From NCBI GenBank assembly GCA_002256025.1, contig NKIB01012208.1:1-64000 (forward strand): DNA of 64,000 nt, written 5' to 3'. The notes under the pieces are model-generated. The model was not told the origin of the DNA. It searched no databases and worked only from the letters and a program-made list of their open reading frames with translations. This DNA is from Asterionella formosa (Eukaryota). Position numbers and translations under genes: made by a program. The first letter of the stretch is position 1. Each line of letters starts with the position of its first letter. Of the stretch, positions 15,990-21,864 are shown piece by piece.

Positions 15990-18438
15990 TTATGCCTTGA
16001 CAGAACCCATCGTGTAACTTGATGCGTACTTCTCAATGGCCTCAGCACCAACTCGGTGACAAAAGTCCCCAAAGGCTTCAAACTGACTTTTTTGTTGAAT
16101 AAACATGGCTAGGATTGGTTCAACGGTAGACTCCAGGGCGTCAACGTCCATCTTGGCCTTGAAGGGGTAAGCTGTGCGAGTCAAGACAGGACTGCCTCCA
16201 AGCCACACCTGATAACTCTTGGGACCATCACCAACAAATGCCAACTCAGCCATGTACGGTCGGGCACACCCGTTGGGGCAACCAGTCATTCGCATAAGAA
16301 TTTCCTCGTCACCAATGTTCATCTTGTTCAACAAGGCACGCATTTGTAACAAGTAGTTTGGCATCAAGCGTTCGGCCTCAGTCTGAGCAAGTCCACACAA
16401 TGGAAGAGCAGGACATGCCATGGAGAGACGGTTGAGGGGGTCAACTTCTTCAATGGGCTTGATCCCATGTGCCTTCAAAATTGCTTCAATGTCAGCCTTG
16501 TTGGCAGGGTCGATATCACGAAAGATGATAGATTGAGTAGGACTCAAAATCATATTGAGGTTGTACTTGTCGACCAAGACACGGAGTGCAGTCTTGAGGC
16601 GGAAGTCACCATCATCCTTGACACGACCATTGTCCACATGTTGTCCATAAAACAGCTTGCCATCACCTTGGTCCCACCAACCCATCCAATCATTGTACTT
16701 CCACTCAGCCATGTCTCTCCACGGCGCAATGGGTTTGCCAAAGTATGATTCGACCAGAGTACGAAAGTTGTCAATCCCAAGAGTGTGAACCAAGTACTTC
16801 ATCCGAGCATTGGCACGAACATCACGATTTCCATGATCACGCTGAGCCGCCAAAATGGCCTTCATGCATTCGGTAATATCTTCCTTGGGGACAAATCCCA
16901 TGTGGTCGGCTGCCCGAGCAAACGTATTTTCCTGGTTGTGCGTTCGACCCAGTCCTCCACCAACCATGACATTGAACCCCAACAACTCCCCAGCATCGTC
17001 AGTAATAACGACGCACCCAATGTCATTGGTGTAAATGTCAAGTGAGTTGTCTCCTGGGACAGTCACACCAATCTTGAACTTGCGAGGCAAGTATCGGTCT
17101 CCATAGAGTGGCTCGACACTGTCAGACAAAATAATGCCACGTCCGTTGTCATAGGTCATGGCCTCGTCAACGTTGAAGTGTTCCACTTCCTTGTGCCATG
17201 TTTCAATGGTGGCCGCCTTTTCTCCATCCAACCAAATTTCCGAAAAGGCCGGAGTCATGGGTCTGAACAGTTGGGCAAATAGTTTCGAGTATTCCCTGGC
17301 GTAATTGTACGCCGGAGTGTTGAATGGTGCAGGCGTTGTCATGACATTGCGACTCACGTCTCCACAGGCCCCCACAGTCGAAGAGCCAATGTTCATAATG
17401 GATGAAATGACAGTCTTTAAGTTTCCCTTGAGGATTCCATGCATTTGGAAACATTGACGTGTGGTAGCTCTCAAATCGCCTTGTCCCATGTTGGCAGACA
17501 AGTCGTCCAATAGTCGAAACAGGTCTGGTGGTAATTCCCCTGCTGGTTGCTTCAGGCGCAACATGAATTGATAATCCTTGCCTGGTCCCTTGTATTCTCG
17601 ATTGTTTTGCATGTAGGAACCATGGTATTTGAGAATTTGGTAAGCATCTTTAGAAATGCCAATTTCTTCCGTGGCTAGTTGCTGTAAGTGTGTGTGTGTG
17701 TTTGGAATTGTTGAAGTAAGCAAAGTGTGAGTGAGCCCTTGCAAATGGATAAATATATTGGGAATGATACGAAACGAGATACCGACAAGGTATAGATCGG
17801 GATACGGATACAATTGGTATCCAAAATGAACAAGATTTTGAGAGCATCGATCAGAGTTTACCCCTTGTTGTCCACTGGCTTATAGGACGGGGCCTTTCTA
17901 GTCGTCGGCATTTGTCGATCAGACGGGGAAAGAATAAGATCATCACCTCGATGCAAGGACGAGCAATGGATGGTTCCAACCTGGTACCTAAATAGAGTGG
18001 TTGTGTTGTTCGACCATACGTACAATAATTACGTATGTAGGTTTGCCGTATTATCACGTCGTGGACAGTGCAGTGCCTACGCGGTAGTAAATTACTTAGA
18101 GAAACGGCGTACCGGTAATGGTGAATGCATCTGCTGATGGTTTTGCCGAATCTGACCTCTGCCCACGACCATGATGAACTCCTTTTACGATAGACATGGT
18201 CACGTCCAAGTCAACTCAAGTCCAAGCCACGTACCTCTACAAGTGGATGAATCAAATGGTCCGAATTGACCTTGAGTGTTTCCAATTTGGATATCTTTTT
18301 GGTCTCTTTCGGCATTTCCAACACCATGGACAAGGCGGATGCCCTTGTTGTTCGAGTCAAAGAACTCGGCGAAACCACAAAGGCGGACGCTGTGCTGGCC
18401 CAAAGGGCCATGGCGAGTGTACCAGCAGCAACCTTCAT
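15990..18438 (-). CDS. SIR: Plastid ferredoxin-dependent sulfite reductase; exons 18438-18235 and 17681-15990
   Basis: Signal peptide plus ASAF motif (WASTASAFVV). Motifs KYHGSYMQ, RATTRQCFQMHG, YLPRKFK, and siroheme/4Fe-4S ligands CPALPLC and GCPNGC. GTACGT donor and TTACAG acceptor join HPLVE|QLATEE in frame. Confidence 0.96.
17844..17954 (-). ncRNA. Intronic box C/D snoRNA, snR190/SNORD12-like (predicted guide for LSU rRNA Gm2395, yeast numbering)
   Basis: Minus strand: GCATCGA-G-GTGATGA (box C, 17946-17940) ... TTCTTTCCCCG-T-CTGA (D', 17922-17919) ... CTGA (box D, 17854-17851)-TCGATGC. Perfect 7-bp terminal stem; 11-nt guide complementary to the conserved LSU sequence CGGGGAAAGAA; same strand as the host gene. 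Confidence 0.88.
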
Positions 18439-19626
18439 GGTGGTCAATGTCGTCGGAGACAAAAGCAACAACAACAAAGTGAGGGATTGCTGTGAAGCAA
18501 AATCAGAGGGACAGGACGGAATCAAGTGGCCGTCTGGGCAGCACAAAAGCCAACCAAAATAATATGGGTGACTGTGAGTGAGTGATGGATCCTGGTCGCG
18601 CCCTGGCATTGGACCTCCTTTCGTACGACGCAAGGACCAGGGAATGTGCCAGGCACAAAGAACAGTTGGATATTTCTTGTTCTCAAGTGCGTTGAGTACG
18701 GTACCAGGTACCAGGTACCTTCTACTGAACCAGGGTGTCGACTACGTACCGGTGAAGGTACGTACCAGGTCGAATGCTGTAGTAGAAGATGGTGGTGTCA
18801 ACAACATTCAACATCAGCATTGCTGGATCTTGTTCGCATGCATCGATAGGGCGATAGTTAGGAATGTATATTCCGGTATGAAGACGTTCGTATGTTCGAG
18901 TGTTTGATTTTCCGGGGTTGGGATACATTTGGGTGTAGGATCCTGGTAACAGGTACCCGGGAAGTTATGATACAGGCATGTACTCCTCTTGTATGTGAAA
19001 ATGTACAATGTGTACCGGTACGGTACCTGGTAAGCAATCATGGCTCCTCCTGCTTGTGATTTACCAGCTACTCCTTGTACCAGTACTGCACAGTACCTGG
19101 TACTCACTGGTACTAGCTATAATACCTATGGGTCGGTAATCGTAGCAGCAGCAACAGCCATGATACTGGTACTACGGTAGTCGATGTGCTTGGCGCAGAA
19201 AAAAAACGTCACGACAGCAGACCAGCATCATGATCATGAGCAATATCATGTCAGAACCAACCGGTACCAGGTACGGAATACCCTGTGCCTGGTCCTGGGT
19301 GCATACTCTACCCGCATGCCATCAGACTTGTTCAGGCATGAACAGTCGTACCTGGTACTGTACCATGTACCAGCTAGTCTACCAGGAACAATCTCAGGTA
19401 CGGTAACATACCAAATGTTTTGCTAGCCAGCAGGAATCTAAGCATATGATCTTTTACGAATCATAATATCTTGCAGTACCGGCACCTGGTACATACTGTG
19501 ATTGACTCATCTTCGTTTAACATCAAAATCTCTTGACACAACACTGAAACAGATACTACCTGGTACCACCCAACCATACTTCATACATCTCTTTAGTTCT
19601 TTAGTGTTATTAAGTATATTGTTGTC

Positions 19627-21864
19627 ATGAAGCAAACGATTGCTGTCGCGCTCTTGCTGGCCATGAGCGCCACTACCAGCACTCAAGCCTTTGCGCCTCA
19701 CGCCAAACTCCTCCTTCGTACTTGTTCCTCTCCCCGTACTCGCCGTACTCCTACCACTAGATCTCGCATGACAATGGATTTGGAAATGCCACCACCAACA
19801 CCACCAGCCGTCGAAACAGTGGTTCCTTCCATTGTCTCACGGGGAGGTGGACCTGTTGATGTCAGGTATTCAGAATTTCTTAAATTAGTCAATGCCGACA
19901 AGGTTGAGAAGGTGACCTTCTCTAGTGATGGATCCAAGTTGTTGGGAGTTGACGTGGATGGGACTCGGCTTCAAATTGAATCTCTTCCAAATGACCCTGA
20001 CTTGTTGTCTCAACTTACAATTCACAAGGTATGTATGTATGTGTGTGTATACATATATATATATATATACTTTTTTTTCATGCTACTAGAATTGACACTC
20101 ATTCATGCTTACTCCTACTTAAACTCACTTTAACATACACACAGGTGGATGTCACTGTCCTTCCAGCACAAGAAGCAAATGATTTAGGAAATTTGGCACA
20201 ATCATTGATTCTTCCTGCTGCCTTGTTTGCTGGACTTTTCTTCTTGACTAGGAATGGAGGAGCAGGGATTGGAGGTGGTGGACCAGGAAATCCAATGGGA
20301 TTTGGAAAATCTAAAGCAGAGTAAGTTGAGGTCTTCTACAAACTGTGCGATATCCCATTATCAACTATTCACCCATTACAACAACAACAGAATCCAAATG
20401 ATTCCAAATACTGGAGTCACATTTGACCAAGTAGCTGGATGTGATGGGGCCAAATTGGAACTTCAGGAAGTGGTGGACTTTCTTAAGCAGCCAGAAGCAT
20501 ACACTAAGATGGGATGCAAAATTCCCCGTGGAGTCATTCTAGATGGACCTCCAGGAACTGGAAAGACACTACTAGCCAAGGCTGTGGCCGGAGAAGCAGG
20601 GGTTCCCTTCATTTCCATATCAGGATCTGAATTTGTCGAAATGTTTGTTGGGGTCGGAGCTTCAAGAGTGCGTGATATCTTTAGTCAAGCCAAAAAGAAT
20701 GCTCCCTGCATTATCTTTATTGATGAAATTGATGCTGTAGGACGCCAACGTGGAGCTGGATTTGCTGGAGGAAATGATGAACGGGAACAAACAGTCAACC
20801 AAATTTTGGTCGAAATGGATGGTTTCAATGGAAATCCCGGGGTCATTACCATTGCCGCTACCAATCGTATCGATATCCTCGATGCCGCCCTCTTGCGTCC
20901 TGGACGATTCGATCGTAAAGTTACTGTCCCCCTTCCAGATTTCAAGGGACGCACCAAGATCTTGGAAGTGCACTCGCGTGGTAAGCCACTCGAACCAGAT
21001 GTTGATCTCGAAGCCATTTCTCGACGAACACCTGGATTCTCCGGGGCTCAACTTGAAAATCTTATGAATGAAGCTGCTATTTCTGCTGCTCGTGCTGCCA
21101 AGGCAACCATTGGATGGGAACAGATTGATTCAGCTGTAGATCGGCTCATGGTGGGTTTGGAAAAAAAGGGCGGAAACGATCTTGCCAAGCAAAAGGAGCT
21201 TGTGGCCTATCATGAGGCTGGTCACGCTGTGGTGGGTGCCCTTGTTCCTGACTATGATCAAGTCCAGAAGATTACAATCATTCCACGTTCTAATGGAGCG
21301 GGTGGATTGACATTCTTTGCTCCTCAAGAATCTCGTCTTGAGTCAGGCCTGTACAGCAAACAGTACCTGGAATCGCAGTTGGCAGTGGCACTTGGTGGAC
21401 GTCTTGCGGAAGAAATTATCTATGGAGAAGACCTTGTTACTACGGGCGCCTCGAATGATATTCAACAAGTTGCCAATATTGCCAAACGCATGGTGAAGGA
21501 ATGGGGCTTTTCGGACAAGGTTGGACGTGTCTGTGTTGCCGAACCAGGTGGTAGACCAAGTTTTATGGGGATGCGAATGTTGCGTCGTCCAACGACGTGG
21601 GGTGGACGAATCAATGGTGTGGCAGAGGCAGAAGTCGAACGTCTCGTGAACAACGCCTACATTGTGGCGAAAGAGATTTTGGAAGATAATCGCGGTTTAC
21701 TTGATCATTTAGCCAAGACTTTGATGGATCAGGAACAAGTTTCGGCGGAAGAGTTCCAAATGATGCTGGTTGAATTCAAAGCAAAGACGATTCCCTATGA
21801 AACGCTTGGATTGGATCGCAACCGTGACAAGCTTCCTTTTCAGGAGTTTCCAGTAGCAGTCTGA
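19627..21864 (+). CDS. ftsH: Plastid thylakoid ATP-dependent zinc metalloprotease FtsH (type A, FtsH1/5-like); exons 19627-20028, 20145-20320, 20391-21864
   Basis: Signal peptide plus TQAFAP. Walker A GPPGTGKT, Walker [30 protein letters not shown] zinc motif, RLESGLYS. Two GT-AG introns restore the frame (IHK|VDV; KSKAE|IQM). Confidence 0.96.

Follow-up and report, generated by a model that had tools for sequence, protein, structure and literature searches.

A putative intron-encoded box C/D small nucleolar RNA of the SNORD12/snR190 group in the sulfite reductase gene of the diatom Asterionella formosa

The stretch of DNA analysed here, referred to as the window, comprises 64,000 nucleotides (nt) from Asterionella formosa (NCBI GenBank assembly GCA_002256025.1, contig NKIB01012208.1, positions 1 to 64,000 of the forward strand), and carries on its minus strand the gene for a sulfite reductase (SIR). 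The coding part of SIR exon 1 (18235–18438; 68 amino acids, aa) has a signal and transit-like N-terminus, its start codon being placed from the protein P0002 and diatom homologues. It is followed by intron 1 (17682–18234; 553 nt, GT..AG, phase 0), defined by spliced RNA contigs and P0002, and by exon 2 (15990–17681; 563 aa and the stop codon), assigned through its Pfam domains and identity to homologues. Within the intron, on the same strand, lies a 111-nt unit (17844–17954) with the features of a box C/D small nucleolar RNA (snoRNA). With a probability of about 0.82, this unit is a genuine intron-encoded snoRNA, and the diatom member of the orthologue group that includes SNORD12/B/C, snR190, snR107 and Z103.

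Read 5' to 3' on the minus strand, the unit opens with GCATCGA (17948–17954), the 5' half of a terminal stem, followed by a single G and by box C, GTGATGA (GUGAUGA in the RNA; 17940–17946), and then TCTTA. The guide, also termed antisense element 1 (ASE1) or box A, reads TTCTTTCCCCG (RNA: UUCUUUCCCCG) and occupies 17924–17934, where it is recognised by its complementarity to large-subunit (LSU) ribosomal RNA (rRNA). A single T (17923) separates it from a canonical box D', CTGA (CUGA; 17919–17922), one base past the guide. Directly after box D' stands UCGACA (17913–17918), the k-loop motif of the SNORD12 family, identified from the Rfam consensus and the search pattern described below. The segment AATGCCGACGA follows, holding a possible degenerate box C', UGCCGA (17905–17910), which is putative on the basis of its position and of UGCAGA or UGnnGA at the equivalent place in relatives, and after it comes CTAGAAAGG. 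An internal hairpin, CCCCGUCC...GGAC..GGGG (17861–17892), is predicted in both the minimum free energy and centroid folds, and consists of the arm CCCCGTCC, the loop TATAAGCCAGT and the 3' arm GGAC..GGGG. Its loop contains AAGCCAG (17875–17881), a motif also found in relatives and a candidate second rRNA-complementary element. TAAACT stands between the hairpin and box D, CTGA (CUGA; 17851–17854), which is evident from the letters, the scan and the covariance model alike, and the unit closes with TCGATGC (UCGAUGC; 17844–17850), whose seven bases pair perfectly with 17954–17948. Taken together, RUGAUGA close to the 5' terminus, CUGA close to the 3' terminus and a closing stem are the arrangement of the SNORD12/snR190/snR107/Z103 group, and the internal hairpin around AAGCCAG may correspond to the hairpins of some protist relatives. 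The first-pass annotation, made from the sequence alone, had proposed the 111-nt unit with its 7-bp stem and boxes C, D' and D, and all of its coordinates are correct on the minus-strand reading.

A scan of both strands of the full window for RTGATGA...CTGA with a flanking stem of at least 5 bp returned 17954–17844 as its sole C/D candidate. Among 100 first-order Markov shuffles of the window, only one yielded any candidate with a 7-bp stem, even though no guide was required, and the chance expectation of a perfect 11-nt complement in ~5.6 kb of rRNA is 0.0013. The unit is thus more than a chance assembly. No Rfam family, whether tRNA or other small RNA, reached its gathering score anywhere in the window.

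When positions 17600–18300 (701 nt) were searched against Rfam with permissive settings, the best match was SNORD12 (RF00581), which aligned over its full length to 17956–17842 on the minus strand with 25.6 bits (E 0.0087 in the 701-nt search). DdR2, snR107, snoZ103 and snoR14 gave weak further matches. The alignments of the first three rest on common letters, namely box C, CUUUCCCC and UGAUCGAC, and snoR14 differs in this respect; GAUCGAC is present in the Rfam consensus of SNORD12, Z103, snR107 and DdR2.

To gather environmental relatives, a pattern combining box C with UUUCCCC and GAUCGAC was run against JGI metagenome contigs, and gave 106 stretches from 105 loci, containing 144 pattern occurrences. 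CUGA and a terminal stem of at least 4 bp stood at the right distance in 116 of the 144, representing 78 distinct sequences, and the remaining occurrences look like chance matches in GC-rich coding DNA. In the family members the second stem half always follows box D. GCC[AG] occurs in 71 of 73 family sequences (those of at most 125 nt, with the window unit counted), usually inside AAGCCAG or CCAAGCCAG, against a chance expectation estimated at ~30% for a two-option 4-mer in ~45 nt. At the Rfam gathering score, 18 loci were assessed: the plant-like copies matched snoZ103 at 94–99 bits, with one at 67.9, a single locus matched SNORD12 at 43.1 bits, and 15 had no match at that score.

From 72 distinct sequences, 28 representatives at no more than 85% identity were chosen, and, after two rows from locus L067 with mis-set ends had been dropped, the remaining 26 were aligned (alignment A1) and used to build a covariance model, R1, which contains no sequence from the window. 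Searched against the whole window with filters off, R1 matched 17954–17844 at 52.9 bits (E 1e-10), the ends coinciding exactly with those of the unit, and the runner-up scored 15.7 bits. UCGACA lies between D' and C' in the unit and is kept in each of the 26 relatives of the alignment, having been demanded by the search pattern. The terminal stem in A1 shows double changes at six of six pairs; this covariation was rejected as independent support, the sequences having been preselected for stems. Sequence comparison therefore supports the placement of the unit among box C/D snoRNAs of the SNORD12/snR190 group, in agreement with the first-pass assignment: SNORD12 is the best Rfam match, the R1 score is high at 52.9 bits, and the family motifs are kept. 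Since the Rfam models are narrow, the unit is filed here under the orthologue group rather than under RF00581.

The rRNA target was assessed on eukaryotic ribosomal DNA (rDNA) contaminating prokaryote assemblies, fetched with a 24-base LSU motif from 28 loci. Two of these (L116 and L118) are full-length eukaryotic LSU rRNA genes (Rfam LSU_rRNA_eukarya, 2782 and 2631 bits), and a third (L111) is a 3'-cut copy covering model positions 1–2467 of 3401 at 1848 bits. As a separate observation, at L106 and L115 the eukaryotic LSU motif lies within contigs labelled bacterial (a 1.16 Mb Mangrovicoccus assembly and a 532 kb Actinomycetota metagenome-assembled genome), which are possibly chimeric assemblies. 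The guide forms 11 Watson–Crick pairs with CGGGGAAAGAA of LSU rRNA and a G.U pair with the preceding G, bearing out the complementarity to a conserved LSU sequence that the first pass had given as established. Among ungapped duplexes between the snoRNA and each locus, it ranks top in eight of the nine long rDNA loci; the exception, L113, also has the site, but in a run with two G.U pairs, which the limit of one G.U pair excluded.

Counted back from D', the fifth base is the C at 17927, which lies opposite the third G of CGGGG. In S. cerevisiae, the box A target of snR190 lies in helix 73 at the root of domain V, with G2395 as the predicted site, and a mutated base within the snR190 duplex, C2392, lies three from G2395 (PMC8536666). 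The third G of CGGGG is the equivalent of yeast G2395, because the spacing of C2392 and G2395 fits the C followed by the third G. The base count and this spacing thereby uphold the earlier statement that the rule of the fifth base before D' lands on that nucleotide.

GGCTTGG precedes the target in 27 of the 28 rDNA loci, and in all three LSU genes GGCUU(GG) occurs once per LSU rRNA, 16 nt 5' of CGGGG. The family motif (CC)AAGCC is complementary to it, and in the unit AAGCC, together with a possible U.G pair, is located in the loop of the internal hairpin. This fits a remark in PMC8536666 on an earlier description, in which part of snR190 box B strengthens the box A pairing close to G2395. For the domain I complementarity of fungal ASE2/box B, no consistent match for bases 85–99 of the unit was found in the rDNA loci. 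These bases, which precede box D, were rejected as a guide, their best complements falling at different, non-homologous places from one rDNA locus to another; they also differ in a relative seen among the RNA-library contigs, and they are taken to form the 3' arm of the hairpin.

By analogy with intronic snoRNAs generally, the unit would be transcribed within the sulfite reductase pre-mRNA and freed from the spliced 553-nt intron, and exonucleases would digest its ends as far as the terminal stem; this stem, together with boxes C and D, would form the kink-turn for the core snoRNP proteins. The 11-nt element before D' is predicted to pair with the 5' strand of helix 73 (the helix as given in PMC8536666), and the AAGCC of the loop can pair with the GGCUU 16 nt upstream of the target. 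On this reading the host SIR gene is simply a well-expressed carrier.

Parts or all of 17790–18010 are contained in 11 sequencing runs from seven studies, mostly lake and freshwater metatranscriptomes, and four of the runs were compared, in the form of contigs. In this comparison 17677–17712 was skipped as a repeat, and the uncovered bins, 17686–17747 in run X8 and 17500–17530 in run X9, are uninformative. A variant lineage of the SIR intron (X9 record 22, with pieces in X7 and X8) carries 22 substitutions and 10 indels over 17713–18234. None of these 32 differences falls inside 17844–17954; the nearest are at 17833 and 17965, with X7 alone adding 17840, so that the conserved block ends within ~11 nt of the unit ends. 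Under a uniform distribution this has P = 0.005 for substitutions alone and P = 0.0005 for all events, and the true value lies between the two because the indels are clustered; the pattern is read as selection on the unit.

Two further classes of contig match the window in parts of the unit alone and have unlike flanks; where they differ from it, they do so between the k-loop motif and the hairpin. One covers 17868–17951 only (X5 record 6, X9 record 23), with 11 differences that all lie in 17898–17912, and its loose ends run on into CTCTGA and a stem half. The other covers 17884–17937 only (X9 record 24, and X7) and has a loose end with AGCCAG. Over the stretches that they span, both classes show box C, the guide, D' and UCGACA without change; they may be paralogues or orthologues from other species. 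A clean compensatory insertion in the terminal stem of a relative among these contigs was considered and withdrawn, as reconstruction from the loose ends gives five pairs (one of them G.U) and two more across a bulge. Intron-wide contigs (17654–18243) are also seen in the RNA libraries; X5 record 4 has a depth of 84.5 against ~460–560 for exon contigs, roughly a sixth, and such contigs could be pre-mRNA, retained intron or DNA.

These observations bear on the proposal that the unit is a chance constellation of motifs, or a functionless snoRNA copy, retroposed and now decaying. Its scores below the Rfam thresholds, and RNA-library data in the form of contigs in which no discrete RNA is seen, would be expected under such a proposal. 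Against it stand the single comparable C/D and stem arrangement in 100 guide-free shuffles, the R1 score, the lack of lineage differences within a block that ends so close to the unit, and the integrity of every family motif, which together leave it scarcely credible.

Several points weigh against the assignment of the unit as a member of this snoRNA group. The SNORD12 score of 25.6 bits lies below the gathering threshold of 43 bits; likewise, snoZ103 reached 16.5 of 44 bits and snR107 18.4 of 44 bits. This shortfall is no argument against the unit itself, since it is the rule among protist members (15 of the 18 loci). The 52.9 bits of R1 include about 20 positions that match by construction, the fetch pattern having been drawn partly from the window sequence. 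The target was checked solely on the rDNA of other eukaryotes, and the RNA-library support consists of contigs, which are blind to a discrete RNA of ~111 nt and of which the intron-wide ones may be pre-mRNA or DNA. Box C' is degenerate, and the fold energy is ordinary (z -1.0). An unremarkable fold energy is usual among box C/D RNAs. Finally, yeast snR190 has the same guide and acts as a chaperone, with G2395 left unmethylated (PMC8536666).

This last point is the core of a different account of function, in which the RNA is real and acts solely as a folding chaperone or placeholder in early pre-60S particles, like S. cerevisiae snR190, with no methylation of the G. The degenerate C' and the conservation of the extra AAGCC pairing element are in keeping with it. 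In the diatom unit, however, D' is a canonical CUGA one base past the guide, in contrast to the divergent C'/D' of yeast (PMC8536666), and methylation accompanies the homologues elsewhere: snR107 is required for Gm2483 in S. pombe, and human SNORD12 is stated to mediate methylation of 28S G3878 (bioRxiv 10.1101/2024.10.03.615557). A role confined to chaperoning is accordingly unlikely, if still a serious contender. The canonical CUGA at D' makes it most likely that the snoRNA guides 2'-O-methylation at the third G, of the kind demonstrated in S. pombe and stated for human, and it would probably also shield the helix 73 region during early pre-60S folding.

The host gene itself is clear. Exon 2 contains the Pfam domains NIR_SIR (PF01077, 1.9e-44) and NIR_SIR_ferr (PF03460, 5.3e-22), and is 81–85% identical to proteins named as ferredoxin-sulfite reductases in Grammatophora, Nitzschia, Cyclotella, Thalassiosira, Seminavis and Chaetoceros. 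By homology, the host is a diatom ferredoxin-sulfite reductase, and its signal-peptide-like N-terminus may point to plastid targeting. P0002 (688 aa, 100% identical) spans the exon junction as ...DHLIHPLVE|QLATEEIGISK..., the proteins of Grammatophora and Nitzschia run collinear with it at that point, and 18235 is joined to 17681 in RNA contigs of three runs (X5 record 5, X8 record 15, X9 record 20). The first-pass intron of 553 nt (18234–17682) is confirmed by these spliced contigs and by P0002. It is also outsized, as had been noted: the neighbouring gene, which encodes an FtsH-type AAA protease (19597–21864, plus strand) and is divergent from SIR, has introns of 116 nt (20029–20144) and 70 nt (20321–20390). 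About 20 of the 120 homologues listed are genomic gene calls in which (Q/E)L.TEE is preceded by no more than a few unrelated residues, the last of them often Q; they include P0003, P0008–P0010, P0029, P0034, P0047 and P0103 (the full junction motif being (Q/E)L.TEEIGISK). This pattern suggests, indirectly, that an intron at the SIR junction may be ancient and shared by many diatoms. Just 5' of the 3' splice site of the SIR intron lies a short (CA)n run (17690–17705, minus strand).

Hosts of other family members were surveyed by scanning 44 of 124 same-strand flanking open reading frames. At locus L054 (3657–5463, minus strand) a member lies between two HSP90 exons, and hence in an HSP90 intron, and at L095 another lies beside an HSP90 exon. 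The L026 member is ~210 nt upstream of an RPL19e exon, and the L013 member is on a contig carrying a WD40 exon. At L012 (435–812, plus strand), the member is ~100 nt upstream of the last segment of an S-adenosylhomocysteine (AdoHcy) hydrolase gene (C-terminus; PF05221, 3.6e-18). The box D region of this L012 member is atypical, with CTGC in place of CTGA. The genes at L042 (CGI-121) and L050 (strumpellin) are more than 900 nt from the family members and may be neighbouring genes. SIR was found in none of the 105 metagenome family loci by tblastn with the spliced SIR protein. Overall, the hosts form a varied set in which abundant housekeeping genes predominate, so that the location in SIR needs no special explanation.

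In the first pass it had been suggested that placement in SIR couples the level of a guide for S-adenosylmethionine (SAM)-dependent methylation to sulfur assimilation. An intronic position does make snoRNA synthesis dependent on SIR transcription, and the unrelated member at L012 is near an exon of a sulfur and methyl-cycle gene. The other hosts (HSP90, RPL19e, WD40) are unrelated to sulfur, though, and the absence of SIR from the 105 loci also speaks against coupling. In the alga Ostreococcus tauri, introns house 72 of 131 snoRNAs; ribosome biogenesis accounts for 33% of the host genes and RNA processing for 18%, and the authors conclude that abundance follows snoRNA stability, not host mRNA level (PMC7671301). 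With host diversity, the missing SIR loci and this stability result all pointing the other way, the coupling idea is unsupported and very improbable. Its premise that intronic snoRNAs usually reside in translation genes is half true in algae, only about half of the O. tauri hosts being ribosome or RNA genes by the same figures. The AdoHcy hydrolase case is best taken as a coincidence worth noting. A stronger version, in which SIR here and AdoHcy hydrolase at L012 are not accidental and some protists place this guide in sulfur or methyl-cycle genes, is even less probable; if it were true, modification at the root helix of the peptidyl-transferase centre would follow the supply of sulfur and methyl groups.

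In bioRxiv 10.1101/2024.10.03.615557, snR107 of S. pombe is described as orthologous to snR190 of S. cerevisiae and to human SNORD12/B/C, with a conserved 6-nt motif between D' and C'. Human SNORD12, SNORD12B and SNORD12C (RF00581), located in introns of the ZFAS1 long non-coding RNA (lncRNA), resemble the diatom unit in their UUUCCCC-containing guide before D', in GAUCGAC after D' and in being intronic. The host here is a protein-coding metabolic gene and there a lncRNA, and the diatom unit has 111 nt and an extra internal hairpin, in comparison with the 90 positions of the SNORD12 model. With S. pombe snR107 (RF04328) and S. cerevisiae snR190 the unit has in common the ASE1/box A target in helix 73 and the D'–C' motif, and snR107 of S. 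pombe, like the diatom unit, is intronic. The fungal snR107/snR190 genes are described as lying upstream of U14 in a noncoding precursor, whereas the diatom unit occupies a SIR intron; fungal ASE2/box B pairs with 25S domain I, and has no consistent counterpart before box D in the diatom unit (PMC8536666 and bioRxiv 10.1101/2024.10.03.615557 for the fungal features). Plant snoZ103 (RF00149) shares with the unit the guide core CUUUCCCC, GAUCGAC, and CCAAGCCAG before box D, and the plant-like metagenome copies share its family pattern. Plant snoZ103 copies are arranged in tandem clusters, unlike the single, intronic unit of the diatom.

Going by titles and abstracts, no description of a snoRNA in a sulfite reductase intron was found. 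Nor was a systematic description of diatom snoRNAs found in the literature searched, where two papers mention snoRNAs just as background or as a qPCR reference; as of 2020, the snoRNA family among unicellular algae was stated to have been characterised only in Chlamydomonas and Euglena (PMC7671301). The unit opens no new mechanism, being a new diatom member of a known pan-eukaryotic group. Box C/D snoRNAs whose orthologues range from yeast to human are few, and the unit adds a diatom to one of them. It also explains the length of the SIR intron, five to eight times that of its neighbours. On the sequence evidence assembled here, the unit most likely guides methylation of a helix 73 G and aids early pre-60S folding, and together with the model R1 it could serve as a starting point for annotating the family in the genomes of stramenopiles, for which the Rfam models fail.

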